Numbered from the stretch's first letter, positions 1,257 to 40,780 are shown. The stretch is DNA of 46,442 nt from Gemmatimonadota bacterium (GCA_003221005.1 QHTZ01000082.1:1-46442), one strand, 5' to 3'. The notes: generated by a model from the letters alone, not told the origin. Program-made: numbers and translations.

Positions 1257-3311
1257 TTAGGGGAACGACGGCCTGCGCTCGGCGGCCGCGATGAGCCGGC
1301 GGCGTTGCAGCCAGACAACGGCGAAGAGCAGGGCCGCTAGGAGAAGGCCCTGGAGCGCGAGCGACTCGACGGTGGGATAGATGCCCAGCACGGGGACGCG
1401 CGGCGCCCAATCGAGCACCGTGGTCCGCACCAAGCCCCCTTCCTGCAAATCCGCGATGCCCTTGCCCGCGAACACGAACGCCATGTAGTAGAGCATTGCG
1501 CTCGTGACGCCGAAGAATGGACGTAGCGGGATCTTCACCCCGAACCGATTGATGGCGAGGTAGATCACAACCAGGCCGATCGCCCCCGCCGCCACACCGG
1601 CCGCCACGGCCACCGTACCGCCCCCTCCCTGAGCTGAGCCGGCGGACGTCAGTAGCGCCTTGTAGAACAGGATCGTCTCGAAGCCTTCGCGGTATACGGC
1701 GAGGAAGGCCACCGACCCGAGCGCGAAGCTCGAGCCCGTGGAGAGCGCGTCCTCCATCCGCCCCTTCACGAACGCGTTCCACTTGGCCACTTCGATCTTC
1801 GAGAGCAGCCAGTAGCTCACGTAGAACAACACGGCCGTCGCGACGAGCATGGTGGCCCCTTCCAGGGCGTCGCGCTGTCCGGGAGTGATCTGAAATAGCA
1901 TCTCGATCACTGCGGCCGTCACCACGCTCGCGGCCACGGCGAGCCACGCTCCTTTCGCCACGTCGCGCCGCCGCTCCATCGCCCCCGCCCGCGCCAGGAA
2001 CGTCATGAGGGCGGCCACGATCAGGATCGCCTCGAATCCCTCCCGCAGCATGAGCACGAACGATTCGGTGAATAGGTTCGCGCTCGACGTTTGATCCGCT
2101 ACGAGGCGCTCGGCGCGCTCGAGCCCCGAGAGCAGCCGGGCCCGGCATGCCTGCAGCTCGTCCGGGGCGGCGCCCGCCGCCGCGCGGGCCCGGAACGTCG
2201 CGAACGCGTCCTCGAGCTCTCCCGCGAGCGCAGCGTTGTGCGCCCGTACGGCCGTCTCGACCTGCTCGAAGGTCAGATAGGCGTCGAACGCCATCTTGTC
2301 GGAGCGTCGCGCCACCGCCGAATCGATCTTGCTGCGGACCTCGGAGAACACCGCCGCGGTCGGCGACGGCCGGCCGTGCTGGCGCTCGGCGGTGGGGAGG
2401 ACTCGCAGGAACGCCACGATGGCGCGCACCGCCCCCGGGTCGAGCGTGCGCGCGAACCCGGGCATCGGCGTCCCGGGCCGCCCGTGGAGAATCAACTGCA
2501 CGAGATCGTCGTCCGAAAACCGCGCCTGCACCGCGAGATCAGCGAGCGCCGGCGGCCGCACCGACATCGTAGCAGCGAGCGGGCCGTCGCCCCGCCCGGT
2601 GGCGCCATGGCAGGAGGCGCACTGCGCCGCGTACCACCCCTCGCCCTCGCCGGCCATCCCCGGAGCGGCGCGCAGCGTCGCGATGTACGTGGTGAGCGCC
2701 CAGCGATCCTCGGGTGACAGCGCCTCGGCGTATTCGGGCATGCCGGTGCCTGCTACGCCGATCGCGATCTTGCGGTACATGTCCACGGGCGAGACCCCGG
2801 CAAGCCCCGCGGTGTCCCCGAGATCGGCCGGGGGTGGGCCCGTCAGCTGCTTGGACTTGGGACCATCGCCGCGCCCAGTCGCGCCGTGGCACTGGATGCA
2901 CTGCTCCCGATACACGACTTCGCCCCGCGCGAGCGATGGCGGCTGCAGCGGGAACGGCTCGAGCGCACCGCCCACCGCCGCCGCGATGCGCTGCACCAGG
3001 ATCGCAGCGCGATGCCCGACCGAGTCGGGGGGAGCGTGGCGGTCGATCATCGCCCGCAGCGCGCGCAGACCGGTGTCCGCTGCAGCGCGCACCGGTCGTG
3101 GCAGCGAAGGCACGTCGAGCAACGCGGCATCCAGGAACTGGCCGGCCTCCTCGACCTCCTGGGGGGCAACCACGCGGCCGCCGTTCGGCGCCACCCCGGC
3201 CGCGTACTCTTTCGCCGCCAGTGACGTCGCGGCGACCACCCGCCGCGCCACCACGACCGAATCCTCCCGCTGCGCCACCAGCGGGGTGACGCACCAGGTA
3301 CTCAACACCAA
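1257..3311 (-). CDS. Cytochrome c / FTR1 family iron (or lead) permease fusion; true start may be slightly upstream
   Basis: Two CxxCH motifs (CIQCHG, CASCHG) with distal Met (GMPEY, PMPGF). C-terminal FTR1 domain has two REGFE motifs. Confidence 0.9.
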   Translation of the reverse strand: MVLSTWCVTPLVAQREDSVVVARRVVAATSLAAKEYAAGVAPNGGRVVAPQEVEEAGQFLDAALLDVPSLPRPVRAAADTGLRALRAMIDRHAPPDSVGHRAAILVQRIAAAVGGALEPFPLQPPSLARGEVVYREQCIQCHGATGRGDGPKSKQLTGPPPADLGDTAGLAGVSPVDMYRKIAIGVAGTGMPEYAEALSPEDRWALTTYIATLRAAPGMAGEGEGWYAAQCASCHGATGRGDGPLAATMSVRPPALADLAVQARFSDDDLVQLILHGRPGTPMPGFARTLDPGAVRAIVAFLRVLPTAERQHGRPSPTAAVFSEVRSKIDSAVARRSDKMAFDAYLTFEQVETAVRAHNAALAGELEDAFATFRARAAAGAAPDELQACRARLLSGLERAERLVADQTSSANLFTESFVLMLREGFEAILIVAALMTFLARAGAMERRRDVAKGAWLAVAASVVTAAVIEMLFQITPGQRDALEGATMLVATAVLFYVSYWLLSKIEVAKWNAFVKGRMEDALSTGSSFALGSVAFLAVYREGFETILFYKALLTSAGSAQGGGGTVAVAAGVAAGAIGLVVIYLAINRFGVKIPLRPFFGVTSAMLYYMAFVFAGKGIADLQEGGLVRTTVLDWAPRVPVLGIYPTVESLALQGLLLAALLFAVVWLQRRRLIAAAERRPSFP

Positions 3312-10998: not shown

Positions 10999-13900
10999 TC
11001 AGTAGCGCCGCTCCCAGATGAGATCGAAGCCCACCTGCCGCGGCACGGTGATGCTCTGCGCCTCCCCCAGGGGGTCCGCCGTGCAGCTGCGGACCGGCTC
11101 GAAGCTCGCCTCCGTGCGGAACTCCGGGCTCATGCGGAACTGGAGACTCACCCCGATTGTGTTTCCCACCGCGACCGGCCGGCCCTGGCAGAACCCCGCG
11201 TTCACCACCAGGAACGTCTTGCGACCCAGCTGCCGCCCGACGGCGAGCTGCACGCCGGAAAGCGGGTCGCTCGGCGCGCCGGGGCGGATCTCCACGTAGT
11301 CGAGCGGGATGCCGAGGTCCGAGACGAGCGTGCGCTCGAGCTCCCCCGAGACGATCGACGCCGCGCTCTGAAGCAGGGCGCGCTGGTCGGCGAGGCCGCC
11401 TTGCTGGCTGCTCAGCTCGAAACTCGGCTTACCAAAGAGGAGGTACGAGATGACCTCGGTCTGCGACAGGTCCTGGTGTTCCGCCGCGAGCGTCACCCGA
11501 GGCACCGACAGCGTGCCCGTGATGTGAGCGACGATGGTGATGTCCTCAGGATTGCGCTGCGACGGCGTGGGCACCGGATGCACGGTGTGTTTCGCCTCGA
11601 TGTTCAACTCGGCGTCGAGGTCTGGCGTCCCGAAGTATTTCACCGTCCCCTGCGACACCACGAATTCTCGGGTCACGCCGAGCTTGAGCCGGTAGACGCC
11701 GCGCGGAGCCTGAAGCGTGCCGGAGAGCAGATAGGCCTTCTGCTGCTTGCTGAGCGTCACGGTGCCGGTGAGCTGGATGTTGGCTTCACCCGAGCGCAGC
11801 CAGACGTCGCTCCCCATGTCGAGGTCCAGGTCCCGGATGCGGAGGCTGTCCAGAAACACGCTTTGGAACTCGGGGCCGAGGCCTTGCTGCTGGATGAGCG
11901 ATGCGAGCGAAGTGTCGGCCAGCTCGCTCAGGCTCACGATGCGCTTCTCGATCAGGTCCGCGAAGTACAGCACACCAGACGTCACGGTCGCGTGCCCGGT
12001 CAGCGTCGCGCCGAACACGGGTCCGGAGAGCGACAGCCGACCGCTGGCGGTGACGGTCACGTCGCCCTTGAGGTCGAGCGCCTTGAAGTGATCCGCGTTG
12101 ATCGTGAGCGCCAGCACGGGATGCGTCAGCTGCTCGAGCCGCACGAATCCCGACACGTCCATCCGGCCGTTGTCGCTCTGCGCGGACAGCGTACGCACGG
12201 CGATCGTGTCCCCCGAGAGGGCCAACTCGCCCGCCACGTGCTCGTACCGCACGTTAAGCGCGGGGATCGTGGCGGCCGCCCCAGCGATCTTGAGGCTCCC
12301 TTCCAGGCGCGGATCCCGCCAGGTGCCCGCGACGCCCACGTCCGCCGAGAACACGCCCTGCACCTGCCGCAGGAGGGGGGTGACCGCTTCCAGCACCGAG
12401 AGGTCCACGGAGTCCGCCTGAGCGCGCACGGAAAGGGTGTCCGGCAGCTGGCGCTGGGCGACGGGGGCGAGCGCGAGGTCGAGCGGCAGGCGCGCCGTGA
12501 CGTTGAGGACCTGCTGGCCCCCACGCCAGAGATGCAGCCCCGCGTCGAGCCGGCGCCCCCGGTACTCGAAGTTCCCATCCATGTAGGGCATGCGGAATTC
12601 GCCGAGGGACCCGTTGGACACCGCCAGCGAGCCGTCGTATTCGGGCTCCGCGCGCGTGCCGGCGAGGCCGACGGTCGCCGTCACGGTGCCCGCGACGCCG
12701 CTCGTATCCTGCTCGAGCAGGGCGTACACGCCCGCCAGCGGGAACCCTTCTATCTGGAGGTGCGCGTCGGCGCGTCCGCGGGTCGGCAGGTCGCCCTTCA
12801 GAACCAGGCGTCCCGAGTCCCGCACGCTGTGCAGCGCGGCGCCGGCGACCCGGATCACCGAGTCGTTCACCGTGACCTGGGTCGGTGCCTCCAGAAACCA
12901 CACCCCGCCGGGCAGCAGCACGGCGAGCGAATCCACGGCGACGGTCACCGTCGAGGGATCGCCTGGCCCGGCCGCGCGCCGCGCGAAGCGGCCCCCCGCG
13001 AGAACCGCGCCGAGGTCGCCGACCCGCGAGCGTGCAAACCACGTCAGCGAGTCGCGCGTCCCGCGCAGCGCGCCGGACGCCGCACCGAAGCCGTACGTAC
13101 CGAACCGCAGCGAGTCGAGCGTCGCGTCGAGCCGGAACGCAGGGACGGGGCCGGGCTGGTACGCACCGTGCAGGCGGCCCGAGGGAATCTCCCAGTCGCG
13201 CCAGCGCACGCGCTCGGCGTTGGCGCGCGCCTCCACGGCCACCGAATCGAACGCACCCTCCAGGGTGAGCAGGACGCGCGCCGAGCCCTTGAGCGAGCGC
13301 CCGCGCCCCACGGTCGCGGTGTCGCGCCCAACGACCCAGGCCACGAGCGAGTCGAGCGAGTTGAGGCTGTCGGCGTCGAAATCGAGCGAGAGCACGCCCC
13401 CGGCCGGGCGCCGCCACCCGAGGGCACCGGCCCCGGTCGTGATGAGCCCCGACTGCGCCACGCGCAGCGAGTCGACGTACAGCCGACCGTCCGCAAAGCG
13501 CACCGCGGCGCGGCCGCTGTCGAACGCCGTCCCGGCAAGCACCGACGGGGCAAGCGCCGCGGTCAGCGCGCCCTCCGGGGCCGCGGCGCTGTCCCACGCG
13601 GCGCCGCCCGTGACCGTGACGTTCAGGCGCGAGCCGGGCAGCCCGCGGACCCACGTCGAGAGGTCGAGGTCCCGCGTGGCGAGCGTGAGATGACGCGCTC
13701 CGGTGCGCTGGTCGAGCAGCGTGAAGATGCCGTCGACCCTTGCCGCTCCCGCCCCTGCAGCGGACGTGAGCTCGGCGTGGGTCTCGAGAGCGGCGGCCGT
13801 GCCGGCGAGCCGCACTGGGCCCTTGACGGCGCCGCGCAGCCGGAGGCCGGGGAAGCTGCCGCTCAGCCCGTCGAAGGAGAGCGAATCGGCGTTCACGTCG

Positions 13901-15393
13901 GCGAAGAACCCGACCGTGTCGGTGCGCGTGTCGAGCCCGACCGTGCCGCGAATCACGCTCGCCGGGCGCGCGCCGTCGCGCTGCGCGAGGGTGCCCGCGA
14001 ACCGGGCGTTGTGCAGCGGCCCCGTGAGCGTACCGGCCCCGGTCAGCTCCCCGCGCAGCGTGACGGCGGGCGCCAGCCGGCGGACCGTGCCGAGATTCAC
14101 GGCCGCCGCCTCCACGGTGAACGGCTGGAAGTGGATGCCGTCCGCCGCGACCAGGTTCACCTCGCCCTTGCCACGGATGCGCGACACGGGCCAACCGGGG
14201 ACGAGCGAGTCTCGAAACGTCCAGTCCAGGTCCAGGGCGAGCGCTTTGACCTGGCCATCGGCGGTGGTATGCCCGGTGAGCCGCCCGTAGAAGGGAAGCG
14301 CCTCGACGAGGCCGCGCGGGAAATCGAGGTCGAAATCGGTCGCCACGAGATCGGCACCTCGTACCGCGACGAGACCGGAATCGGCCGCGGTCACCACGGT
14401 GAGCCGGCCGGCGAGCGCGCCGCCGGCGTACCGCACGTCGAGCGGATCGAGCTGCACTTCGAGGAGGCGGCTGCCGTGCGACCGGAGTCGCACGCCGCCC
14501 CGGTACACCGCGCTTCCCGGAAAGCGAGCGGTCACGAAGCGCGCGTCCTCGAGCGTGGCGGAGTCGGCGCGCAGCGCGAGGTCGTAGAGGAGGGTGCCCC
14601 GGGGCCAGCGCACCCGCCCGCGCGCGGACAGCCGCGAGGCCGGAAGCTGCACGCGCGGCAGGTCGGCCTCGAGCGAATCGCCGACGATGGTGATCTGCCC
14701 CGCGGCGTCGCGCACCTCGACGCGGGGATCCGTGCTGGCCATCGCGAGCTTCGTGATGTCGATCCGGATCCCGCGGTCCTGCGGGGACGAGACGCGTAGC
14801 GCCGAGAGGCGTGCGTTCACATGTTCGAAGCGCCGCACGCGGCGCCGGCCCTGGCTCTCGAGGGGGTCGATCTCGGGGCCGGGCGCCGCTGGCTCGCCGG
14901 TCTCCTGCAATCGCAGCGTGACGGTGCCCTCCTCGATGCGCACGTTGCGGAACAGGATCAAGGTTGCGGGCCCGTGCGGACCGGTGCTGGGGCGCCCGAG
15001 CCGCAGGAACTCTTCAACGTTGAGACGGCCCCCGGGGTGCTGGACGACGTTGATCGTCGGCTCGCGCAGCTCGAGCTCGAGGAGGAGCACGCGGCCGGCC
15101 GCGAAGTCGAACGGATTGTAGCTCGCGTCCACACGCGGGAGCGCGGCCACCAGCGTTGTGTCCGGGTCGAACAGCTTGACGTCCCGCAGCGTGACGCCCG
15201 TGAGGAGGGGCCCCCGGATGTCCCCGATCTCCACCGAGCCGTCCACCACCTGGCCCAGCTCGCTCGTCGCGACCCGGCCCAGCAGGCGGCGCCCGGCGCC
15301 CGTGCCAACCAGGGCGCTGAGCGCCCCGAGGAACGAGGCGAGCAGCCCCGCCACGAGCCACAGCGCCGCCGCGAGCGAGTGGCGGACCATCAA
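10999..15393 (-). CDS. tamB: Translocation and assembly module TamB (AsmA-like) protein
   Basis: 1464 aa with N-terminal anchor and beta-rich repeats. DUF490-like C-terminus (PDLDAELNIEA, EVISYLLFG). Directly downstream of an Omp85 gene. Confidence 0.85.
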   Translation of the reverse strand: MMVRHSLAAALWLVAGLLASFLGALSALVGTGAGRRLLGRVATSELGQVVDGSVEIGDIRGPLLTGVTLRDVKLFDPDTTLVAALPRVDASYNPFDFAAGRVLLLELELREPTINVVQHPGGRLNVEEFLRLGRPSTGPHGPATLILFRNVRIEEGTVTLRLQETGEPAAPGPEIDPLESQGRRRVRRFEHVNARLSALRVSSPQDRGIRIDITKLAMASTDPRVEVRDAAGQITIVGDSLEADLPRVQLPASRLSARGRVRWPRGTLLYDLALRADSATLEDARFVTARFPGSAVYRGGVRLRSHGSRLLEVQLDPLDVRYAGGALAGRLTVVTAADSGLVAVRGADLVATDFDLDFPRGLVEALPFYGRLTGHTTADGQVKALALDLDWTFRDSLVPGWPVSRIRGKGEVNLVAADGIHFQPFTVEAAAVNLGTVRRLAPAVTLRGELTGAGTLTGPLHNARFAGTLAQRDGARPASVIRGTVGLDTRTDTVGFFADVNADSLSFDGLSGSFPGLRLRGAVKGPVRLAGTAAALETHAELTSAAGAGAARVDGIFTLLDQRTGARHLTLATRDLDLSTWVRGLPGSRLNVTVTGGAAWDSAAAPEGALTAALAPSVLAGTAFDSGRAAVRFADGRLYVDSLRVAQSGLITTGAGALGWRRPAGGVLSLDFDADSLNSLDSLVAWVVGRDTATVGRGRSLKGSARVLLTLEGAFDSVAVEARANAERVRWRDWEIPSGRLHGAYQPGPVPAFRLDATLDSLRFGTYGFGAASGALRGTRDSLTWFARSRVGDLGAVLAGGRFARRAAGPGDPSTVTVAVDSLAVLLPGGVWFLEAPTQVTVNDSVIRVAGAALHSVRDSGRLVLKGDLPTRGRADAHLQIEGFPLAGVYALLEQDTSGVAGTVTATVGLAGTRAEPEYDGSLAVSNGSLGEFRMPYMDGNFEYRGRRLDAGLHLWRGGQQVLNVTARLPLDLALAPVAQRQLPDTLSVRAQADSVDLSVLEAVTPLLRQVQGVFSADVGVAGTWRDPRLEGSLKIAGAAATIPALNVRYEHVAGELALSGDTIAVRTLSAQSDNGRMDVSGFVRLEQLTHPVLALTINADHFKALDLKGDVTVTASGRLSLSGPVFGATLTGHATVTSGVLYFADLIEKRIVSLSELADTSLASLIQQQGLGPEFQSVFLDSLRIRDLDLDMGSDVWLRSGEANIQLTGTVTLSKQQKAYLLSGTLQAPRGVYRLKLGVTREFVVSQGTVKYFGTPDLDAELNIEAKHTVHPVPTPSQRNPEDITIVAHITGTLSVPRVTLAAEHQDLSQTEVISYLLFGKPSFELSSQQGGLADQRALLQSAASIVSGELERTLVSDLGIPLDYVEIRPGAPSDPLSGVQLAVGRQLGRKTFLVVNAGFCQGRPVAVGNTIGVSLQFRMSPEFRTEASFEPVRSCTADPLGEAQSITVPRQVGFDLIWERRY

Positions 15394-17498
15394 AAGGCCT
15401 GCCCCACGGCGAACTGGACGATGACCCGCCGCCAGAACGTCGCCGGCCGCGGGGGTTGATAGGTCGCGTTTTGCACCAGCGTGAGGTTGTTCTGCTTATC
15501 CTGGAAGTAGACCGGTCCCGGCTCCGCGGCGTAGCCGTTGTAGGCCGCGTCGATGCGAACGGGTCCCAGCGGAGTGGCGAACCGGAGCCCCGCGCCCGGG
15601 GTCACGCGGATGTCGTGCAGGCTGGTCTGATCAACGCGCGCCCACACCTGGCCGACGTCCACGAACATTGCAACCCGCATCCGGTCGGGAAACACCGGCG
15701 TGGCGAAGCGGAGCTCGGCGTTGAGGACGAAGAGCGCATTCCCCCCGGTCGGCGCCGTCTGGACGTCGAAGAACGTCCTCTCGGTTCCGTTCACGACGAC
15801 GCTGTCGCTGACGTAGACTCGGGGGCCCAGCTCGTTACGGGCGTAGCCGCGCACCGAGTTCGGGCCGCCGCCGTAGAACCGCTGGTCCGGCGGCACGAAT
15901 TGCACACTCTGTGTGTCAACGGTGACATTCCGGAGGGGAACGATCGCACCCGTCCGAACCCGCCAGGCCAGGACCCCTCGCCGGCCGATGGGATGGTACC
16001 GCGAGACCTCGAGCTCCCCGCGGTTGAACTCGTACAGGGTGTCGGAGCCCACGACGCGGGATGCGTGCATCAGGCCAACGGTCACCAGGCTTCCGCGGGT
16101 GGGATCCAGCACCGAATTGACCTGGTTGCGCACCCCCGAGACCGTTACGGCGGCGAACCGGCGAGAGCTCGTGAGCAGCGCCTGGTCGTTCGCATCGCAC
16201 ACCCGGAACACACTGCATAGCACCGCAGCGTCGGCGGTCGTGCGACCCACGGAGAAGCCATACCCGATCGTCACCGGGATGTTGCGGCGCGCGTTGATGG
16301 TGACGGCGGGATTCACGCCGACATCCTGACGCGTGTACGTCTTGAACTCGGACCGGCGCTCCGCGAACACGCCGAGGCGCGCCGTGTGGCGCGGCGAGAA
16401 GAACGTGGGCTGTCGCAGCGTCAACCCGACCGTGTAGTTGAGAGTGTCCGACGTCGAGTCCGCCTGGAGCGACTGGCACACGTTGTCCCTGAGGCCCACG
16501 TCGGTCGGTCTGCCGACCCCGAGCTTCGAGACGCTCCCCGTCAGGTCGAGCGCGCGCGCCCCGCCGAAGAAATCGTATGCCGTCCAGCCGCCCTGCACCC
16601 GGAAGCAGTCGATCGTGCCGAACCCCATTCCCCCAAGGATCCGATGCCCGGCCCCCTCCACCACCCGCACCACGACGCGCACGAGCGTGTCGCCGGGTGC
16701 CGTGGGCGGCAGCGAGTCGGCCAACAGCACGTTGGCCGAGCGAAACACGCCGATGTCGTAGAGGTCGCGCTGGCTCAGGTACAGCCGGTCTTGTCTGAAC
16801 AGGTCGCCCGGTTTCACCGACAACATGCGCCACACCGTGGCGGTGTCCACGCGGCTCAGGCCCTGGATCACGACGTCGCGAATCCAGATACGTGGCCCTG
16901 TGATCACCTCCAGAGTCGCCGCCGCCGTGAGCGCCGCGTCGTCCTCGTCGAAGTTCCGCAGCACGGTGCCGTATGGATAGCCGACGTTCCTGAGCTGGGC
17001 GACGATGGTATCAGCCGACACCTGAAACGACAACCGGTTGAACGGATCCCCCACCCGGAGCGGCAGGTCCCTCTTCAGTTGTGACAGGTTGAAGATCGGC
17101 TCGGCGCCGATGATGTCGAGCCGCAGCAGCCGCACCGGGTCGCCCTCATGAATGCGAAACTTGATGAAGGCGTCGCGGGGCGTGCGACGCACGACGGTGT
17201 CGACCACCGCGTTCACGTAGCCGCTCTGCCGGTACAGGAGCAACAGGCGCAGCACGTCGCGGCGGAACTCGACCTCGCTGAGGTAGCGCCGCTCACCGAG
17301 ATGGGTCCAGCGCAACCACCATGTCCTGGCGAAGAAGCTCGACTGCGACGTCGCGATCGCGGTGCTCAGGGTGTAGTCGTCGATGGCGTGATTACCCTCG
17401 AAGGCGAGACTGCGTACCACTCGCTGCTCCTGCTGCTGGGCGGCGAGGGAAGCCGCCGCGGACACGGCGACCAACACGGCAAACAGACCGGCACGCAA
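15390..17498 (-). CDS. Omp85 family outer membrane protein (TamA/BamA-like)
   Basis: Signal peptide, POTRA-like repeats, RFYGGGPNSVRGY, TPLGPVRIDAAY and terminal FAVGQAF. Confidence 0.92.
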   Translation of the reverse strand: MRAGLFAVLVAVSAAASLAAQQQEQRVVRSLAFEGNHAIDDYTLSTAIATSQSSFFARTWWLRWTHLGERRYLSEVEFRRDVLRLLLLYRQSGYVNAVVDTVVRRTPRDAFIKFRIHEGDPVRLLRLDIIGAEPIFNLSQLKRDLPLRVGDPFNRLSFQVSADTIVAQLRNVGYPYGTVLRNFDEDDAALTAAATLEVITGPRIWIRDVVIQGLSRVDTATVWRMLSVKPGDLFRQDRLYLSQRDLYDIGVFRSANVLLADSLPPTAPGDTLVRVVVRVVEGAGHRILGGMGFGTIDCFRVQGGWTAYDFFGGARALDLTGSVSKLGVGRPTDVGLRDNVCQSLQADSTSDTLNYTVGLTLRQPTFFSPRHTARLGVFAERRSEFKTYTRQDVGVNPAVTINARRNIPVTIGYGFSVGRTTADAAVLCSVFRVCDANDQALLTSSRRFAAVTVSGVRNQVNSVLDPTRGSLVTVGLMHASRVVGSDTLYEFNRGELEVSRYHPIGRRGVLAWRVRTGAIVPLRNVTVDTQSVQFVPPDQRFYGGGPNSVRGYARNELGPRVYVSDSVVVNGTERTFFDVQTAPTGGNALFVLNAELRFATPVFPDRMRVAMFVDVGQVWARVDQTSLHDIRVTPGAGLRFATPLGPVRIDAAYNGYAAEPGPVYFQDKQNNLTLVQNATYQPPRPATFWRRVIVQFAVGQAF

Positions 17499-27766: not shown

Positions 27767-27823
27767 ATGCCGGAGACAGGCGGTTTCGGGCTGGGACACC
27801 GTCGCGCCAGCCGAGGGAGATGA
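27767..27823 (+). CDS. Candidate 18-aa leader ORF (MPETGGFGLGHRRASRGR)
   Basis: GGGAGG 6 nt upstream of the ATG. Its stop overlaps the next start as ATGA. Confidence 0.35.
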   Translation: MPETGGFGLGHRRASRGR

Positions 27824-30780
27824 CGGACCGGCGCAGCTTCCTGGGCTGGCTCGCTTCCGTGTCCACCGCCGTCGGGCGGTCCGGCCGTCGCGCGAGGAGC
27901 GCACCGGTTCTCACCGTCGACGCGCGGCCCACCGCGCTGTTCCAGCAGCCTGACGGGCACAACAACCTCATACGGCTCACCGTCACCGGGCTCGACGCGC
28001 CGGCGGGGCGGGCGCGAGTCACCGATCGCCGCGGGACGCTCGTAGGCACGGCCGGCCTGCTGCCGGCGGAGAGCGGCACCGTGTTCACGGGCGAGGTCTG
28101 GGTCCCTCTCGCCGGCCCGGCGGAATTTCAGATCGAAGTGCAGGTGGGGAAGCAGCGGGTGGGCCGCCAGCGCGTGCGCCTCGCGCCCCCGCGTCGCTGG
28201 ACCCTGTACTGGCTCTCCGCGAATCACACCCAGATCGGGTACACCGATCTGCAGGAGCGTTGCCTCGAGATCCACCGCGAGAATCTCGACGCCGCGCTCG
28301 ACCGTCTCGCCGCGCATCCCGACTACCGCTGGACAGCGGAGTGCGCCTACCAGGTGATCTCCTACGTGGAGAACCGGCCGCCGGCCGCCGGCGACGCGTT
28401 GCTCCGGGCGATCCGCGACGGCAAAGTGGGCTTCCAGGCGTTGTTCGCGAACGTCCTGACGGGGCTGCTCGACCACGAGACGTACGCGCGCCTCGCGTGG
28501 CCCGCGGGGCTGCTCGCGCGCGAGCATGGCCTGGGCTTCGCGAGCGCCCAGCTCACCGCCGTGCCTGGTCAGCCCCTCACCTTTCCCCTCGTGCTCGCGG
28601 CGAGCGGTGTGCGTTATCTCGCCACGGGCCCGAATCCAGAGCGCGCCCTCCCGCTGCTGCCTCCTGATGAGGCCGCGCGCCACCACCTCACCGGGGAGTG
28701 GACGACGTATCCGCAGCTTTACTGGTGGGAGGGCCCCGACGGCAGTCGCGTGCTGCACTGGCGGGGACTGGACTACGGGGACGCCCTGCGCTTCGGCTTT
28801 GATCAGGGACCGGACGTGATGGCGCACCGGCTGTCCGACTGGCTGCTCTCCAGCCCCGTCTTGGTTTCTCCCGCGTATCCGTACGACGTCGCGCTGTTGT
28901 ACGGGGCGCAGCGCGACAACCAAGTGATGGACGAGCAGCTGATCGGCCACATGGAGGACTTCAATCGGCGGTTCGCATTCCCGCGGATCGTACCGGGGCG
29001 CGCCGAGGATTTCTTTCGCGCGGTGGAGCAGCGGTACGGCCGTGTTCTCCCCGTGCGGCGCGGCGACACCGGCCTCTACTGGGAGGACGGGGCAGCCTCG
29101 ACCGCGGCCGAGCTGGCGCGGTTCCGGAGCACTCAGCTCGCGGCCCGGGCGGCCGAGCTGCTGGGACTATGGGACGATCGCACGGAGCCGCCGGACGCGG
29201 CGCAGCGCGTCCGCGAGCGTGCGGCGCTGCGCCGGGCCGCCTGGCGCGACCTGCTGCTGTTCGCCGAGCACACGTGGGGAGCAGACGTCAGCGTCTCCGA
29301 CCCCGACTCGCGGCAGACTGTGGCGCAATGGGCGTATAAGCGGCGCTTTCTGGAGAGCGGGGCAGCGGCGGTCGCGCAGGAGCTCGTGGACGGCCTGCTG
29401 CGACTCGGCACGAGCACGGCTGCCGGGACTGGCCGCGTGGTGTTCAACGCGTCTTCCTGGCCGCGCAGCGACGTGGTGCACATCCCCGACGGTGCCGGCA
29501 GGCGCCTCACGTACGCCGACCGCGAGCTTCCCGGCGTGGACCTCCCCGACGGCTCCTCCCTGGTGGTGGTGCGAGACGTCCCCGCGCTCGGGTACCTGCG
29601 CCTCAGCGAGACCGACCGGCCGCCCAACCCTGCTGTAGACGAAGGCTCGGCGCTCGAGGCTCAGGCGGGTGGCTTCCACGTGGTCCTGGACGCGCAGAGC
29701 GGCGCGGTCCGCTCGCTCACGGGGCCCGACGGCAAGGATCGCGTCAACCCGAAGGTCTGGGCAGGCGTGAATCAGATGGTGCGCGTCACGGGCGGCCCGC
29801 GTACAGCGCTCTGGACCGGGTGGCCCCGCGACGACCTCGCGACCCCGCCGGACCTGCGCATGGCGCAAGCAGAGCTCATTGCCGCACGGCGCGAGCGTCT
29901 GCCGGGAATCGGCGTGCGCCTAGTGGCCCAGCGGCGGCTCGAGGGCTTCACGAGCCTCACTTCAGTCGTAACGCTGTACGACGAGCTGCCGTGGGTGGAC
30001 CTCGAGAACCGGCTGACGAAGACGCCGACCTTGGAAAAGGAAGCGGTGTACGTCGCCTTTCCCTTCGCGCTCGCCCGGCCCACCGTCGAGATCGAGGTGC
30101 CGCTCGGCCGGATGACGGTGGAGCGCGACCAGCAGCCCGGGAGCTGTCGTGACTGGTACTGCCACACGCACTGGGTGTGGCTGCACGAAGCAGCGGACGG
30201 CGTCCTGTGGAGCGGGCCGGACACGCCCCTGTGCACGCTCGGTGACGTGTTCCGCGGAGCGTGGCACCGGCGGATCGAGCCCGACGGGACGCTGTTCGCG
30301 TATGCGATGCACAACTACTGGCACACGAACTTCGCCGCGCGGCAGGGCGGCGAGGCGAGCTTCCGCTTCCGGTTGTCGCTGCTCGCGCCCGGGGGCGACG
30401 CGGCGGAGCCAGTGCGACGCGGGTGGGCGGCGGCCGACCCGCTGTACGTGAGCGCCCGGTTCACCAACGCCGTCGCAGGGCCGCTCATCGACAAGGACAG
30501 CGCGCTGTTCCTCGCCGACCGCGGCGCGCTGGTCGTGGGCGCCAAGCGCGCCGACGACGGTGAGGGGGCGATCGTGAAGCTGCTCGACGTCGCGGGGACG
30601 AGGCGTCCCGTCGGTGTATGGCCGGCGGCGTACCGCTTTGCGCAGGCCCGCCGCGTGGATTTGGTAGAACACAATGGGGACCCGCTCACGGTCGCGAGCG
30701 ACGGAAGTACGGCGCTCGACCTCGCGGCGTGGGGGGTCGCCGCGGCCCGGCTCTTTACACGGCGTGACCCCGTCCATTAA
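27820..30780 (+). CDS. Glycoside hydrolase family 38-like protein with Tat-like signal; catalytic residues appear altered
   Basis: DRRSFL twin-Arg, HTQIGYTD, YWWEGPDGSRVL, YWEDG, EHTWG, NYWHTNFAARQGG and a C-terminal beta domain. Confidence 0.8.
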   Translation: MTDRRSFLGWLASVSTAVGRSGRRARSAPVLTVDARPTALFQQPDGHNNLIRLTVTGLDAPAGRARVTDRRGTLVGTAGLLPAESGTVFTGEVWVPLAGPAEFQIEVQVGKQRVGRQRVRLAPPRRWTLYWLSANHTQIGYTDLQERCLEIHRENLDAALDRLAAHPDYRWTAECAYQVISYVENRPPAAGDALLRAIRDGKVGFQALFANVLTGLLDHETYARLAWPAGLLAREHGLGFASAQLTAVPGQPLTFPLVLAASGVRYLATGPNPERALPLLPPDEAARHHLTGEWTTYPQLYWWEGPDGSRVLHWRGLDYGDALRFGFDQGPDVMAHRLSDWLLSSPVLVSPAYPYDVALLYGAQRDNQVMDEQLIGHMEDFNRRFAFPRIVPGRAEDFFRAVEQRYGRVLPVRRGDTGLYWEDGAASTAAELARFRSTQLAARAAELLGLWDDRTEPPDAAQRVRERAALRRAAWRDLLLFAEHTWGADVSVSDPDSRQTVAQWAYKRRFLESGAAAVAQELVDGLLRLGTSTAAGTGRVVFNASSWPRSDVVHIPDGAGRRLTYADRELPGVDLPDGSSLVVVRDVPALGYLRLSETDRPPNPAVDEGSALEAQAGGFHVVLDAQSGAVRSLTGPDGKDRVNPKVWAGVNQMVRVTGGPRTALWTGWPRDDLATPPDLRMAQAELIAARRERLPGIGVRLVAQRRLEGFTSLTSVVTLYDELPWVDLENRLTKTPTLEKEAVYVAFPFALARPTVEIEVPLGRMTVERDQQPGSCRDWYCHTHWVWLHEAADGVLWSGPDTPLCTLGDVFRGAWHRRIEPDGTLFAYAMHNYWHTNFAARQGGEASFRFRLSLLAPGGDAAEPVRRGWAAADPLYVSARFTNAVAGPLIDKDSALFLADRGALVVGAKRADDGEGAIVKLLDVAGTRRPVGVWPAAYRFAQARRVDLVEHNGDPLTVASDGSTALDLAAWGVAAARLFTRRDPVH

Positions 30781-30789
30781 TCTCGACCC

Positions 30790-32271
30790 ATGACGAAAGC
30801 CACTACCCTTGGCGAATTGAAGCAGACGGAGTGGGCCAGCCCCGCACGCCTGCGTCGCACCGTGAAGGACGAGCTGCGCGACAACCTGGTCTGCCTGCTC
30901 GAGAACGGGTCACCCCTGTTCCCGGGCATCGTGGGCTACGAGGACACCGTCATCCCGCAGCTCGTGACCGCCGTCCTGTCGCGGCACAACTTCATCCTGC
31001 TCGGCCTGCGCGGGCAGGCGAAGAGCCGCATCCTCCGGGCGCTCGTGCTGCTGCTCGACGAGGAGATTCCCATCCTGGCGGGGAGCGAGGTCAACGACGA
31101 CCCGTTCCGCCCGATCTCGAAGTACGGCCGCGAGCTGCTGGCCGAGCGGGGCGACGAGGCGCCGATCGCGTGGCTGCCGCGCGATTCACGGTACGTCGAG
31201 AAGCTCGCGACCCCCGACGTGACGATCGCCGACATCATCGGCGACGTGGACCCGATCAAGGCGGCCCGGGGCGGGCACCTGCTGTCGGACGAGCTCACGA
31301 TGCACTTCGGCCTGCTGCCCCGGGCGAACCGCGGGGTGTTCGCCATCAACGAGCTGCCCGACCTCGCCGGCAAGATCCAGGTCGGCCTGTTCAACGTCAT
31401 GCAGGAGGGGGACGTCCAGATCAAAGGCTACCCCGTCCGCCTGAACCTCGACGTGGCGCTCGTGTTCACCGCCAACCCGGAGGACTACACCGCGCGCGGC
31501 AAGATCATCACGCCCTTGAAGGACCGCCTCGGCTCGGAGATCGTGACGCATTACCCCCACACGGTCGAGCTCGGCGCCACGATCACCCAGCAGGAAGCGT
31601 GGCTCGACCGGCACGGCCGGCCGGTGCGCGTGCCGGACTTCATCGCCGAGCTGGTCGAGCGTGTGGCGTTCGAGGCGCGGGAGGACAAGCGCGTCGACCG
31701 GCGCAGCGGGGTGTCGCAGCGCCTGCCGATCTCGCTGCTCGAAAACGTGGTGTCCAACGCCGAGCGGCGCGCCCTCCGCACGAAGGAGAAGGTGGTAGTC
31801 CCCCGCGTCTCGGACGTGTACGCCGCGCTCCCGGCGATCACCGGCAAGCTGGAGCTCGAGTACGAAGGCGAGCTCCAGGGGTCGGAGGTCATCGCCAAGG
31901 ATCTGATCCGGCGGGCGGCGGGGAAGACGTTCGAAGCGCGGGTCGGCGGGGCGAACGTCGACGACATCGTGCACTGGTTCGACGAGGGCGGCGCCCTCAA
32001 GATCTCCGTGGACGAGCGCGCCGAGACCTGCCTCAAGGGGTTCAGCGTAGTCCCGGGCCTGCTCGATCTCGTGGATCAGGTGGGACTCGCCGCGAAAAAG
32101 GATCCGCCCACCATGGTGTCCGCGTGCGAGCTGGTGCTCGAGGGGCTCGTCGCCGAGAAGCGCATCTCGCGGACCGAGGAGCTGGGGTACGTGCGGGTGC
32201 GCGCGGAGCCGAAAGGGCCCGGGTACGGGAAGACGGGCGGTGGAGGCACCGGGCCGAATCTGTTTTCTTGA
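30790..32271 (+). CDS. Magnesium-chelatase/MoxR-like AAA+ ATPase
   Basis: GLRGQAKS Walker A variant, [20 protein letters not shown] and [19 protein letters not shown]. Confidence 0.88.
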
Positions 32272-36626: not shown

Positions 36627-36672
36627 AACGAAGGTGCGGTCTGTCGCGGACCTTCACACGGAGGAAGCTCAG

Positions 36673-37098
36673 ATGCGCACAATGCTCTGCTCCCTGATCG
36701 CGGCCCTCGGCATCGCCGCCACAGCCCCCGCGCAGCAACCGGCCCCACCCGCCGGTCCCCCGGGGATGATGGGCGGGGACTCGGCTGAGTTCGAATGGCT
36801 CGGGCTCACGGCCGACCAGCGCGCCAAGATCAAGGCGATCCGCGACCAGCTGCAGCAGCAGAACGCCCCGCTCCGCGAGCAGGTGCGCCAGATCACGGGC
36901 GGCCGCTCCTTCCGCGACCTGTCGCCTGCCGCGCGCGATTCCTTGCTCCCCAAGCTCCAGCCAATCCGGGACCAGATGATGGAAAACGGCCGCAAGGCGC
37001 ACGAGCAGATCGAAGCACTGCTCACGCCGGAACAGCGGAAGAAGCTGGCGCAGCACATGCGCGAGCACGGGATGCGGGGCGGGCCGCCGCCAGACTGA
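36673..37098 (+). CDS. Spy/CpxP family periplasmic chaperone
   Basis: Signal peptide, two LTxxQ motifs (LTADQR, LTPEQR) and a GGAGG SD. Confidence 0.85.
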   Translation: MRTMLCSLIAALGIAATAPAQQPAPPAGPPGMMGGDSAEFEWLGLTADQRAKIKAIRDQLQQQNAPLREQVRQITGGRSFRDLSPAARDSLLPKLQPIRDQMMENGRKAHEQIEALLTPEQRKKLAQHMREHGMRGGPPPD

Positions 37099-37156: not shown

Positions 37157-40100
37157 GTGAGCGAGTTCGTCTTCGGTACCCACAATGCGGCGTTCGTGCA
37201 GGTGATGTACGAGCAGTACCTGCGCGATCCGCAGTCGGTCGGGGAAGAGTGGCGTAACCTCTTTGACAACGGTCGGGTCGCCGACCTGCCGGTAATCCCG
37301 ACGAGCCGGGAAGAAGTGCTGCGGGACGAGGGACGAGGGACGAGGGACGGGTCGGTCGTCACCGAGCCCGGGACCACCCGTCCCCCGTCCCCCGTCCCAC
37401 CTCCCCAGGGCCTCACGCCGATAACCGGCCCCGCAGCTCGCCTCGCCCAAAACATGACGGACTCTCTGTCCGTCCCCACGGCGACGTCGTTCCGCGACAT
37501 CGCCGCAGACGTGCTCGACGCGCAGCGGCGGCTGCTGAACGGCGCCCTGGCTGCCCGCGGGCTCAAGATCTCCTACACGCACCTCATCGGCTACGCCCTC
37601 GTACAGGCGGCGCGCGGCTTCCCGGTGATGACCCACGCCTTCCAGGAAGTCGAGGGCAAGCCGCACCGCTTCGATCCGCAGGCGGTGCATCTCGGTCTCG
37701 CCGTGGACGTCGAGAAGAAGGACGGCAGCCGCGCGCTCGTCGTCCCCGTGATCAAGCACGCCGAAGGGATGGATTTCGCGCAATTCCGCGCGGCCTACGA
37801 GACCCTGGTCGAGAAGGCTCGCGCCAACAAGCTGCTCCCCGACGACTTCGCCGGCGCGACCATCACGCTCACCAACCCCGGCACCCTCGGCACTTTCGCG
37901 TCGGTGCCGCGCCTCATGAAGGGTCAGGGCTCGATCATCGCGACCGGTACGATCCGCCAGATCGGCCCCGCGAAGGTCATGACGCTCACGAGCACCTACG
38001 ACCACCGCATCATCCAGGGCGCGGAGTCGGGGATGTTCCTGCGCAGAGTCGAGGGGCTGCTGCAAGGGGAGGACGAGTTCTACGGCTCGATTCTGGAGAG
38101 CCTAGGGTTGCAGGGACGTGGGACGCGGGACGTGGGACGGGTGGCGACGGTAACAGCTCCACCGACCCCGTCCCCCGTCCCCCGTCCCTCGTCCCTCGAC
38201 GATCTCAAGCACGTAGCAGCAGCCATGGCGCTCGTGAAAGCGATCCGCCATTTCGGGCACATGGCGGCGCGGCTCGACCCGCTCGGCTCCGCGCCCCCCG
38301 GCGACCCGGCGCTCGATCCCGGTCCGCTCGGCCTGACGCCCGAAATCATGGCGCGGATCCCGGCGGAGATCCTGCGCATCTACGTGCCGGGGGTCACCCT
38401 CGCCGACGCGTATCCGGAGCTGTTGCGCACCTACTGCGGCACGATCTCTTACGAGGTCGAGCACATCGGCAGCCACCAGGAGCGCCTCTGGTTGCGCCAC
38501 GTGATCGAGTCGGGGGAGCACCGCACGCCGCTCACGCCGGACGAGCGGCGCGAGTTGCTTGCGCGGCTGACGGCGGTGGAAACGCTCGAGCGCTTCCTGC
38601 ACCGTACCTATCTCGGGCAGAAGCGTTTTTCGATCGAGGGACTCGACATCCTCGTGCCGATGCTCGACCTCACGATCGAGCTCGCGGGCGCGGGCGGCGC
38701 CCGTCGCGTCGTGCTCGGCATGGCGCACCGCGGGCGCCTCAACGTGCTCGCCCACGTGGTAGGGCTCCCCTACGAGACGATCTTCGCCGAGTTCGAGGGA
38801 GGTAGGCACGTGGAAGAGACCCTCACCCCCGAGGGCGGCACCGGCGACGTGAAGTACCACCACGGCGCGGACGGAGTGTACCAGACGGCCGATGGCAAGC
38901 CGGTCAACGTCACCCTGTCGCCGAACCCGAGCCATCTGGAGGCGGTGAATCCGGTGGTCGAGGGCCGGGCCCGCGCCAACCAGACGAACCGCCGCGGCAA
39001 GGAGGCGTTCTCCGATGCCTCAGTCGCCCTCCCCGTGCTGATCCACGGCGACGCCTCGTTCGCGGCACAGGGCGTCGTGGCGGAGACGTTCAACCTCGCG
39101 CGGCTCAAGGGCTACACTACGGGCGGTACGATCCATCTCATCGCGAACAATCAGCTCGGCTTCACGACCGACGCCAAGCAGGCGCGCTCGACCGACTACG
39201 CGAGCGATCTCGCGAAGGGGTTCGACGTTCCCATCATCCATGTGAACGCGGACGATCCCGAGGCGTGCCTCGCGGCGGTGCGCCTGGCGCTCCGGTACCG
39301 GGCGGAGTTCAAGGGCGACGTGGTGATCGACGTCGTGGGGTACCGCCGCTACGGCCACAACGAGGGGGACGAGCCGGCGTACACGCAGCCGCTCATGTAC
39401 GAGAGGATCAAGGAGACGCCGACCGTGCGGCAGCGCTACGCCGAGCAGCTCGTCGCCGCCGGCGTGGTGGACGCGGCGCAGGTCGAGGCAGAGCCCCAGC
39501 AGTTCTACCAGCGGCTGAGCGAGATCCAGCAGTCCCTCAAGGCCCATCTCTCCGAGGACACGAAGGGCGAAGAGCCGCAGCGCATCTCGGGTGTGCAGCA
39601 GCTGGTCTCGGAGCCGGACACGCGGACGGCGCCGCAGCTCCTCACCAGCCTGAACCAGCAGCTGCTCGCGGTGCCCGACGGATTCACCGTGAACCCCAAG
39701 CTCCAGAGGCAGCTCGAGCGCCGGCGTGAGGCATTGACGCAGGGCGAGATCGACTGGGCGCACGCCGAGGCGCTGGCGTTCGCGTCGCTGTTGCAGGAGG
39801 GGATCTCGATCCGCCTCACCGGACAGGACACCGAGCGCGGCACCTTCAGCCAGCGCCACCTCGTGCTGCACGACATCCGCACCGGTCAGGGCTACGCGCC
39901 GATGCAGAACCTCGCCGGCGCGCGCGCGCCGTTCGAGCTGTACAACAGTCCGCTGTCCGAGTTCGCATGCCTCGGCTTCGAGTACGGGTACGCGGTGGCG
40001 GCGCCCGACGCGCTAGTGTTGTGGGAGGCGCAGTACGGCGATTTCACCAACGAAGCCGAAGTGATCATCGACCAGTTCCTCATCGCCGGGCTCGCGAAAT

Positions 40101-40780
40101 GGGGCCAGACCTCGCGGCTGGTGCTGCTCCTGCCCCACGGGTACGAGGGCCAGGGACCCGAGCACTCGAGCGCCCGCATCGAGCGGTTCCTCGCCTTGGG
40201 CGCCGACGGGAACATCCGGATCGCCAACTGCTCCACGCCGGCGCAATACTTCCATCTGCTGCGCCGCCAGGCGCGCCACACCGAGATCCGGCCGCTCGTG
40301 CTGTTCACGCCCAAGAGCCTGCTGCGGCTGCCGCAGGCGGCGTCCAAGCTCGAGGAGCTGACGGCGGGCGCGTTCCATGCTGTGCTGGACGACGCCGCGG
40401 CGGCGGAGCGGCGTGACGCCGTGCGCCGCCTCGTGCTGTGCAGCGGCAAGGTGTACTACGATCTCCTGCTGGCGCCGGCGCGTGCCAGCGCGACCACCGT
40501 GGCGGTCGGCCGCGTCGAGCTGATGTATCCCTTCCCCGAGGCGGAGCTCGCCGAGCTGGTGCGGCGGTACCCCAACCTCACAGAGATCGTGTGGGTGCAG
40601 GAGGAGCCGCGCAACATGGGTCCGCAGAAGTTCATGTTGCCGCAGCTGCGCGAGCTCGTCCCCGCGAGCATCGAGCTACGCCACATCGCGCGGCCCGAGC
40701 GCTCGAGCCCGGCCGAGGGGTACCCCGCAGCGCACCAGGCCGAGCAGGCGCGGATCGTGGCGGAGGCGTTCGCGACCTGA
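37157..40780 (+). CDS. sucA: Multifunctional 2-oxoglutarate dehydrogenase/decarboxylase (Kgd/OdhA-type E2o-like + E1o fusion)
   Basis: Acyltransferase-like domain (TLTNPG, YDHRIIQGAESG) followed by KRFSIEG, GMAHRGRLN, GDVKYH, HGDASFAAQG, GHNEGDEP and LPHGYEGQGPEHSSAR. Confidence 0.95.
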   Translation: MSEFVFGTHNAAFVQVMYEQYLRDPQSVGEEWRNLFDNGRVADLPVIPTSREEVLRDEGRGTRDGSVVTEPGTTRPPSPVPPPQGLTPITGPAARLAQNMTDSLSVPTATSFRDIAADVLDAQRRLLNGALAARGLKISYTHLIGYALVQAARGFPVMTHAFQEVEGKPHRFDPQAVHLGLAVDVEKKDGSRALVVPVIKHAEGMDFAQFRAAYETLVEKARANKLLPDDFAGATITLTNPGTLGTFASVPRLMKGQGSIIATGTIRQIGPAKVMTLTSTYDHRIIQGAESGMFLRRVEGLLQGEDEFYGSILESLGLQGRGTRDVGRVATVTAPPTPSPVPRPSSLDDLKHVAAAMALVKAIRHFGHMAARLDPLGSAPPGDPALDPGPLGLTPEIMARIPAEILRIYVPGVTLADAYPELLRTYCGTISYEVEHIGSHQERLWLRHVIESGEHRTPLTPDERRELLARLTAVETLERFLHRTYLGQKRFSIEGLDILVPMLDLTIELAGAGGARRVVLGMAHRGRLNVLAHVVGLPYETIFAEFEGGRHVEETLTPEGGTGDVKYHHGADGVYQTADGKPVNVTLSPNPSHLEAVNPVVEGRARANQTNRRGKEAFSDASVALPVLIHGDASFAAQGVVAETFNLARLKGYTTGGTIHLIANNQLGFTTDAKQARSTDYASDLAKGFDVPIIHVNADDPEACLAAVRLALRYRAEFKGDVVIDVVGYRRYGHNEGDEPAYTQPLMYERIKETPTVRQRYAEQLVAAGVVDAAQVEAEPQQFYQRLSEIQQSLKAHLSEDTKGEEPQRISGVQQLVSEPDTRTAPQLLTSLNQQLLAVPDGFTVNPKLQRQLERRREALTQGEIDWAHAEALAFASLLQEGISIRLTGQDTERGTFSQRHLVLHDIRTGQGYAPMQNLAGARAPFELYNSPLSEFACLGFEYGYAVAAPDALVLWEAQYGDFTNEAEVIIDQFLIAGLAKWGQTSRLVLLLPHGYEGQGPEHSSARIERFLALGADGNIRIANCSTPAQYFHLLRRQARHTEIRPLVLFTPKSLLRLPQAASKLEELTAGAFHAVLDDAAAAERRDAVRRLVLCSGKVYYDLLLAPARASATTVAVGRVELMYPFPEAELAELVRRYPNLTEIVWVQEEPRNMGPQKFMLPQLRELVPASIELRHIARPERSSPAEGYPAAHQAEQARIVAEAFAT
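37323..37398. repeat. Inverted 7-nt tandem repeats in frame in sucA linker 1
   Basis: (GGGACGA)3GGGACGG ... (CCGTCCC)3. Confidence 0.9.
38113..38195. repeat. Inverted 7-nt tandem repeats in frame in sucA linker 2
   Basis: GGGACGT GGGACGC GGGACGT GGGACGG ... (CCGTCCC)3 TCGTCCC. Confidence 0.9.

Follow-up and report, generated by a model that had tools for sequence, protein, structure and literature searches.

Exported proteins of a Gemmatimonadota bacterium are enriched in the Bacteroidota O-glycosylation sequon, suggesting a general glycosylation system

Introduction

Bacteroides fragilis, Tannerella forsythia, Flavobacterium johnsoniae and other Bacteroidota possess a general O-glycosylation system that recognizes the sequon D-S/T-A/I/L/V/M/T (PMC12871550). 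Where that review deals with its distribution, the system is described as unique to Bacteroidota and the motif as enriched 'mainly' there. The sequon transferase, the ligase and the core flippase are given as unknown in the relevant sections of two accounts (PMC12871550, PMC8729774). Here we analyze a stretch of 46,442 nucleotides from a Gemmatimonadota bacterium (GCA_003221005.1 QHTZ01000082.1:1-46442; hereafter the window), in which the genes for a TamB-family protein and an Omp85/TamA-like outer-membrane protein lie next to each other. The earlier note on this DNA, made from the sequence alone, had counted many matches to D-[S/T]-[A/I/L/M/V/T] in exported proteins and few in cytoplasmic ones, and proposed that the lineage may have an equivalent system. 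We find that the excess extends to the exported proteins of the whole genome and follows the residue preferences of the Bacteroidota sequon, which suggests Gemmatimonadota as a new phylum, predicted in silico, for a known kind of system.

Other bacterial systems share some of these features. The PglL/PilO systems of Neisseria and Burkholderia are periplasmic, depend on a lipid carrier and O-glycosylate many exported proteins; in the review's treatment of them they act without a strict sequon (PMC12871550). Campylobacter PglB, an STT3-family enzyme, likewise serves a general system with exported targets and a short sequon containing an upstream acidic residue, but its glycans are N-linked, at D/E-X-N-X-S/T. 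Lipid-linked-sugar systems that combine a YfhO-family GT-C with a GT2 glycosyltransferase include CsbB/YfhO of Bacillus subtilis and Pgf of Streptococcus mutans.

Results

Sequon enrichment in signal-peptide proteins

The window constitutes contig C120, bases 1-46442, of a 2.79 Mb genome in 141 contigs (69% G+C; rated 93.9% complete and 0.35% contaminated). Genes were called by codon log-likelihood with a home-made caller trained on long frames of high third-position G+C (GC3), yielding 2616 genes at a coding density of 91.5%. Signal peptides and transmembrane segments were classified by a heuristic rule of our own. As caller and signal-peptide classifier are both home-made, all comparison genomes were processed with identical code; relatives were sampled at about 120-400 kb per genome. 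Matches to D-[S/T]-[A/I/L/M/V/T] were scored against an expectation calculated from each protein's own composition, which for single proteins is the mean of 500 composition-preserving shuffles. The genome-wide census leaves out genes touching contig ends. Its signal-peptide set comprises proteins whose signal peptide scores high and which lack any further membrane helix, and its cytoplasmic set those with neither signal nor helix.

The 363 signal-peptide proteins contain 713 sequons against 332.5 expected, an observed-to-expected ratio (O/E) of 2.14 (bootstrap 95% interval 1.91-2.37), whereas the 986 cytoplasmic proteins contain 566 against 627.2 (O/E 0.90, interval 0.82-0.98). The proteome-wide comparison that the earlier note had called for is in line with its hand counts. 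Multi-pass membrane proteins (1.35) and ambiguous proteins (1.39) are intermediate. The enrichment is not confined to a few proteins: after removal of the ten richest, the signal-peptide O/E is still 1.96, and 59% of the signal-peptide set exceed their own expectation, compared to 31% of the cytoplasmic set. The ratio climbs with the signal-peptide score, from 1.45-1.52 at scores 3-5 to 2.05-2.22 at scores of at least 5, and both Sec-type (2.20, n=256) and lipoprotein-type signals (2.02, n=107) are associated with it. The loosest signal-peptide threshold was passed by 658 of the 2616 genes. A loose twin-arginine pattern gave 24 mostly unconvincing matches, with a sequon O/E of 1.61.

Residue preferences of the enriched tripeptide

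Position-by-position scans covered 379 signal-peptide and 1099 cytoplasmic proteins. When the first residue of X-[ST]-[AILMVT] was varied over all 20 possibilities, D alone was enriched (2.17), with E at 0.84, N at 0.93 and the remaining residues at 0.79-1.19. The second position favors S (2.79) and T (1.61); P follows at 1.34, and no other residue exceeds that value. At the third position the enriched residues are A (1.95), I (2.00), L (2.49), T (2.43) and V (2.19), while S (1.04), W (1.24) and M (0.94, only 9 cases) are not, and G (0.70), P (0.58), D, E, K, N, F, Y, H and C are depleted, at 0.31-0.70. The reversed motif is flat in signal-peptide proteins (344 against 347 expected), and none of the scanned position patterns is enriched in cytoplasmic proteins.

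The published Bacteroidota sequon, as set out in the corresponding section of the review, has an almost obligatory Asp, a slight preference for Ser and one of L/I/V/T/A/S after the modified residue; in B. fragilis it does not tolerate Glu or Gly (PMC12871550). The enrichment pattern described here reproduces it residue by residue, M at the third position excepted: E does not substitute for D, S is favored, and a hydrophobic residue or Thr stands at +1. The same D / S,T / hydrophobic pattern appears in scans of the bacteroidote Taibaiella koreensis and of a Gemmatimonadales relative (G003), and is absent from a scan of a genome of the Vicinamibacterales.

Control genomes and fold-matched proteins

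In T. koreensis, the Bacteroidota positive control (400 kb), the O/E is 1.96 (195/99.4) for signal-peptide proteins and 0.94 for cytoplasmic ones. The source genome thus resembles it both in the restriction of the tripeptide excess to non-cytoplasmic proteins and in its size (2.14 versus 1.96). The Gemmatimonadales relative G003 (400 kb) gave 2.23 (116/52.0) and 0.98. Five genomes from outside the FCB group served as negative controls, with signal-peptide and cytoplasmic O/E, respectively, of 0.77 (38/49.3) and 0.74 in Vicinamibacterales (Acidobacteriota, 66.8% G+C), 0.63 (8/12.7) and 0.61 in Steroidobacteraceae (68.7% G+C), 0.73 (4/5.5) and 0.68 in Hyphomonadaceae, 0.74 (7/9.5) and 0.88 in E. 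coli K-12 (50 kb), and 1.02 (11/10.8) and 0.89 in Chlamydiia. Steroidobacteraceae and Hyphomonadaceae are, besides E. coli, the Proteobacteria among them. Summed over the five, signal-peptide proteins hold 68 sequons against 87.8 expected.

The best matches of the window's SucA in a species-representative collection come from Gemmatimonadaceae/Gemmatimonadota genomes (73-75% identity), followed by other Gemmatimonadales (59-66%). In the NCBI taxonomy, Gemmatimonadota and Bacteroidota both belong to the FCB group. As the earlier note had judged, the lineage is therefore not Bacteroidota; it falls, however, within the same superphylum.

The earlier note had also raised the possibility of a β-turn bias, which would show as equal enrichment in TamB of non-glycosylating taxa, with proteobacterial TamB/TamA as fold-matched controls. 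E. coli TamB contains 4 sequons against 4.0 expected and TamA 1 against 1.95; two TamB-family proteins of the Vicinamibacterales genome contain 3 against 4.55 and 9 against 12.8. The first TamB paralogue of T. koreensis contains 23 against 6.2 (z 7.0), and in G003 both TamB (22 against 8.4) and Omp85 (5 against 1.55) exceed expectation. As the TamB proteins of E. coli and the acidobacterium lack the enrichment while one Bacteroidota TamB has it, the excess is not a property of the TamB fold. The two T. koreensis paralogues (G001; L151, L152) differ, as one alone is sequon-rich and the second contains 8 sequons against 6.3 expected.

Sequons of the window proteins

The TamB-family protein contains 20 sequons against 5.8 ± 2.3 expected (z 6.3), the highest number of all proteins in the genome. 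They lie at amino acids (aa) 78, 239, 277, 395, 492, 503, 601, 641, 675, 681, 691, 716, 760, 781, 821, 844, 985, 994, 1062 and 1182. The Omp85 protein contains 9 against 2.5 (z 4.35): those at aa 100, 163, 218, 261 and 270 belong to the POTRA-bearing N-terminal part that precedes the Omp85 domain match (aa 343-654), and those at aa 347, 351, 486 and 565 fall within the match. The two genes lie on the same strand and overlap by 4 bases; the C-terminal TamB (DUF490) domain and the adjoining Omp85 protein with POTRA repeats identify them as a TamB/TamA module. Envelope proteins of the TamB and Omp85 types are among the carriers in the Bacteroidota system as well.

Table 1. Coordinates of the features discussed. 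Coordinates without prefix refer to the window; G000 denotes the source genome.
Feature	Coordinates	Strand	Description
TamB-family protein	10999..15393	-	1464 aa; N-terminal membrane anchor; Pfam TamB 139 bits
Omp85/TamA-like outer-membrane protein	15390..17498	-	702 aa; signal peptide; Pfam Omp85 146 bits, POTRA
FTR1 iron permease fused to cytochrome c domains	1257..3311	-	684 aa; Pfam FTR1 (aa 418-626), Cytochrome_CBB3, Cytochrom_C
LTXXQ (Spy/CpxP-like) periplasmic protein	36634..37098	+	154 aa; Pfam LTXXQ; signal peptide by heuristic rule
SucA (2-oxoglutarate dehydrogenase E1)	37157..40780	+	1207 aa; cytoplasmic contrast protein
AAA ATPase	30790..32271	+	493 aa; cytoplasmic contrast protein
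VWA-domain protein	35240-36538	+	near AAA ATPase; no signal peptide detected
Protein with weak GH38 N-domain match	27820-30780	+	986 aa; twin-arginine-type signal (…DRRSFLG…)
YfhO-family GT-C	G000:C116:2484-4814		776 aa; 10 helices; Pfam YfhO 53 bits, above cut-off; one in genome
metG	G000:C52:24153-25700
metG and following genes	G000:C52:24153-33766		includes adjacent 1113-aa and 559-aa pair
Wzy_C-domain protein	C97:32763-34142

In the fused FTR1 protein, where permease and two or more cytochrome c domains share one chain, the 4 sequons (1.4 expected, z 2.39; aa 17, 96, 166 and 330) all precede the permease domain. The LTXXQ protein contains 2 against 0.24 (z 3.87; aa 49 and 102); the 141-aa Spy form described earlier represents a later start in the same frame. 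The cytoplasmic contrast proteins contain one sequon each, against 2.5 expected in SucA (z -0.96) and 1.1 in the AAA ATPase (z -0.13). All six counts made by hand (20, 9, 4, 2, 1 and 1) proved exact, and the names TamB, Omp85, FTR1 and Spy correspond to the Pfam assignments TamB, Omp85 with POTRA, FTR1 with cytochrome c, and LTXXQ.

Two further proteins of the window were examined. The VWA-domain protein contains 4 sequons against 1.2 expected; either its localization has been misjudged or the excess is due to chance. The 986-aa protein with the twin-arginine-type signal contains 1 against 2.8, and the few other Tat-like proteins of the genome that look convincing are not sequon-rich either, although their number is tiny.

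Conservation of individual sites

The window's TamB was aligned with 25 orthologues of the same family and 9 of the same order, 35 sequences in all. For the 20 sequons of the window's TamB, a sequon occurs within two columns in a mean of 72% of the same-family orthologues, at an overall identity of 46%. The Asp of the sequon is identical in 79% of these orthologues; for the remaining 75 Asp residues the figure is 46%. In sixteen alignment columns a sequon is present in half or more of the 35 sequences, each of which contains 17-30 sequons in total. The sites at aa 239 and 641 are kept in all 9 order-level orthologues at about 30% identity, and 7 of 9 order-level Omp85 orthologues share the sites at aa 163, 261 and 270. 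This site-by-site conservation in TamB and Omp85 indicates purifying selection on the sequon tripeptides themselves.

Distribution within Gemmatimonadota

A TamB search over 80 Gemmatimonadota genomes provided loci for 29 same-family relatives, 28 of which contained a TamB frame (L214 gave none). Together these 28 orthologues hold 586 sequons against 160.6 expected, with an O/E of 2.8-4.6 in each; without one unpublished genome (G066, L205) the sum is 566 against 154.7. In nine genomes of the same order the observed and expected numbers are 219/64.0 for TamB and 66/20.5 for Omp85. Within the same class, they are 16/4.8 and 8/1.6 in one genome of family f4, 12/5.5 and 5/2.1 in one of family f5, and 42/27.0 and 18/10.4 in five of families f6 and f7. 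In other classes, two genomes of family f8 gave 9/4.0 and 12/4.2 for TamB with 1/1.2 and 0/1.4 for Omp85, one of family f9 gave 3/4.0 and 2/1.15, and one of family f10 gave 5/4.2 and 2/1.65. When TamB and Omp85 are removed, the pooled order-level windows contain 19 sequons against 8.1 expected in 5 signal-peptide proteins, and the f6/f7 windows 9 against 9.2 in 7.

The trait is firmly placed in the family and order of the source genome and is likely present in families f4 and f5. It is absent or weak in several other Gemmatimonadota lineages; its distribution is patchy and not phylum-wide. A 120 kb sample of an f8 genome from another class (G012) has a signal-peptide O/E of 1.96-1.97 (58/29.4). 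In its signal-peptide proteins, D-[ST]-L alone is enriched 3.6-fold.

Candidate machinery

YfhO has been predicted in silico as the Bacteroidota transferase, and the section that makes this prediction notes its absence from Porphyromonas gingivalis (bioRxiv 10.64898/2026.07.27.740950), for which an O-glycoproteome is described (PMC8729774). The source genome encodes a single YfhO-family protein in an apparent operon consisting of a methyltransferase, an LPG_synthase_TM-type membrane protein, YfhO and an overlapping 243-aa GT2. The best NCBIfam matches of this GT2 are polyprenyl/dolichyl-phosphate sugar synthases (AglJ/PpgS/Dol-P-hexose type), all far below cut-off, and the C-terminus of YfhO matches PgfM1 of the S. 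mutans protein glycosylation system, also below cut-off. The layout, judged by these matches, appears to be the gene arrangement of lipid-linked-sugar glycosylation systems. Such systems also use a flippase, and none was identified. The YfhO protein is 21-25% identical to T. koreensis YfhO, and a sequence search for relatives with a solved structure returned none at E up to 1.

As a marker of the trait YfhO was rejected, since orthologues are present in every Gemmatimonadota genome checked, enriched or not. The whole-genome Pfam search had missed those of G087, G060, G088, G070 and G073, but with the source protein as query all five genomes yielded full-length orthologues at 32-50% identity. 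The Pfam presence/absence pattern is therefore a sensitivity artefact, and Pfam-based absences of YfhO in Gemmatimonadota are unreliable. As orthologues occur in enriched and non-enriched genomes alike, the gene does not explain the trait. It does not track it either, and this neither supports nor excludes YfhO as the enzyme.

Four proteins with the Wzy_C domain of ligase/PglL-like enzymes are encoded on contigs C9, C12, C97 and C64, the first three of which were used as queries against 15 genomes. Those on C9 and C12 had no match there. The C97 protein has good matches in G003, G076 and G037 and weak ones in G012, G022 and G001, and none in the enriched G078 and G032 nor in seven other, non-enriched genomes of the 15. 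This pattern follows the enrichment in part and is suggestive at most. The neighbors of the C97 gene look like polysaccharide genes. The presence of Wzy_C proteins recalls the PglL/PilO systems, which differ in that a strict sequon signature is seen here and in that only C97, of the three proteins searched, has orthologues in some relatives.

Downstream of metG, the source genome encodes predicted exported proteins, among them an adjacent pair whose resemblance to SusC/SusD is limited to size and order.

Discussion

The source bacterium, its family and the order Gemmatimonadales probably have general protein O-glycosylation with the Bacteroidota acceptor rule. O-glycosylation is the simplest account of the data because the tripeptide is selected in exported proteins only, follows a three-position grammar, reaches a Bacteroidota-like strength, is absent from the five non-FCB controls and is conserved site by site. 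The proposal of an equivalent system in this lineage gains support from the exported-protein enrichment and its Bacteroidota grammar. What we infer is the attachment of a glycan, its location and its enzyme. Proteins would first be exported across the inner membrane and glycosylated afterwards, when a membrane-bound transferase would transfer a sugar or glycan from its lipid carrier to the Ser/Thr of D-S/T-(A/I/L/V/T). If the modification is useful, sequons would accumulate and be retained in TamB, Omp85 and other exported proteins, and not in cytoplasmic ones. The predicted system would differ from that of Bacteroidota in belonging to Gemmatimonadota, where it is patchy and known from sequence alone, and in the lack of enrichment for Met at +1.

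Several observations weigh against this interpretation. The literature searched yielded no glycopeptide, glycan or lectin data for the source organism or for Gemmatimonadota, nor any paper on protein glycosylation in the phylum, although the signal may stand unremarked in published figures. Gene calls and signal-peptide calls both rest on home-made heuristics. A loop test on multi-pass proteins, using a crude positive-inside topology split, gave a sequon O/E of 1.37-1.48 inside and 1.26-1.52 outside, with a weak predictor that had no power in the positive control. Signal-peptide proteins are flat in two Gemmatimonadota, G005 (335 kb; 1.01, 50/49.7) and G088 (same class, family f7, 120 kb; 0.71, 24/33.8), in neither of which an alternative X-[ST]-hydrophobic pattern stands out, and weak in the Longimicrobiales genome G008 (140 kb; 1.25, 38/30.3). 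In G012 the cytoplasmic set is raised as well (1.58-1.59, 34 against 21.3-21.6), so that this genome is possibly positive at most; the raised set includes enolase- and IlvC-like proteins (L235, L242-L246). YfhO orthologues are found also in the non-enriched or weak lineages G005, G008, G088, G070 and G073, and of the candidates examined (YfhO, Wzy_C and the metG locus) none could be linked to the trait. In the Bacteroides-type locus, as laid out in the review, metG is followed by wzx and glycosyltransferases (PMC12871550). The source metG differs in having neither adjoining it, a result that concerns adjacency alone and not a genome-wide search for wzx.

The tripeptide might instead be selected in exported proteins for a reason other than glycosylation, such as another Ser/Thr modification, recognition by a chaperone, protease or sorting factor of the periplasm, or a lineage-specific habit of starting β-strands with an Asp cap. 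Many of the TamB sites indeed consist of D-S-L followed by alternating hydrophobic residues, resembling a strand start. No machinery tracks the trait, the sugar itself is not observed here, and the loop test, with its weak predictor, shows no periplasmic bias. The same folds in E. coli and Acidobacteriota are however free of such a habit, and the enrichment spreads over many protein families, as seen from the share of proteins above expectation and from its persistence without the top ten. The pattern also fits, at all three positions, a sequon whose function in a neighboring phylum is treated as established in the review (PMC12871550). We therefore regard this explanation as unlikely, though it is the strongest of the alternatives.

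It is also conceivable, with a still lower probability, that the sequon is glycosylated by a system that evolved separately or came by lateral transfer and was not inherited from a common FCB ancestor. One example would be a YfhO/PMT-like GT-C that adds one sugar, with the neighboring GT2 supplying the polyprenyl-phosphate donor. The overlap of the YfhO gene with a GT2 of the polyprenyl-phosphate-sugar-synthase type resembles the known YfhO GT-C and GT2 systems, and the PgfM1 match points in the same direction. The sub-threshold NCBIfam matches and the failure of YfhO to follow the trait set the locus apart from them. Patchiness within the phylum and the low identity to T. koreensis YfhO would be expected from an independent origin, but a homologous transferase is the simpler explanation for an identical specificity at three positions, and the YfhO-like gene is present also where there is no enrichment. 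The sequons of the two T. koreensis TamB paralogues coincide with Gemmatimonadota sequon columns above chance (7/23 against 1.8-2.5, and 4/8 against 0.7-1.1). This argues for common ancestry but is given little weight, since alignment at 17% identity may by itself bring D-S-L triplets into register.

An artefact of composition, gene calling or signal-peptide prediction is largely refuted and very improbable: the tools are home-made and a high Ala/Leu/Arg content makes false signal peptides likely, as the number of genes passing the loosest threshold illustrates, but expectations take the composition of every single protein into account, the genome's cytoplasmic set and high-G+C controls run with the same code are flat, the enrichment grows with signal-peptide stringency, and the named proteins are confirmed by Pfam.

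If O-glycosylation at this sequon is accepted, its origin can be considered. Other envelope traits of Bacteroidota are reported in most FCB phyla, in the portion of the work concerned with them (PMC12611786), which makes shared FCB ancestry plausible. Glycosylation of D-S/T-hydrophobic sites may, tentatively and with somewhat less than even chances, be an older envelope trait of the superphylum that persisted in the Gemmatimonadales, with single sites conserved at family and order level, and disappeared from several Gemmatimonadota lineages.

If O-glycosylation is correct, the presence of the sequon signature in another, distantly related phylum would change the view of the system's place and time of origin. 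Gemmatimonas species are cultivable and not host-associated, and organisms of this kind would be added as test beds. The contrast between enriched and non-enriched Gemmatimonadota relatives offers a comparative-genomic route to the missing enzymes. If the trait is an older one of the FCB group, its patchiness would make it possible to identify, by phylogenetic profiling, the transferase sought in vain in Bacteroidota for over 15 years. Annotation and structural studies are concerned as well: among the envelope proteins of these soil and freshwater bacteria, TamB, Omp85 and hundreds more may be glycosylated.

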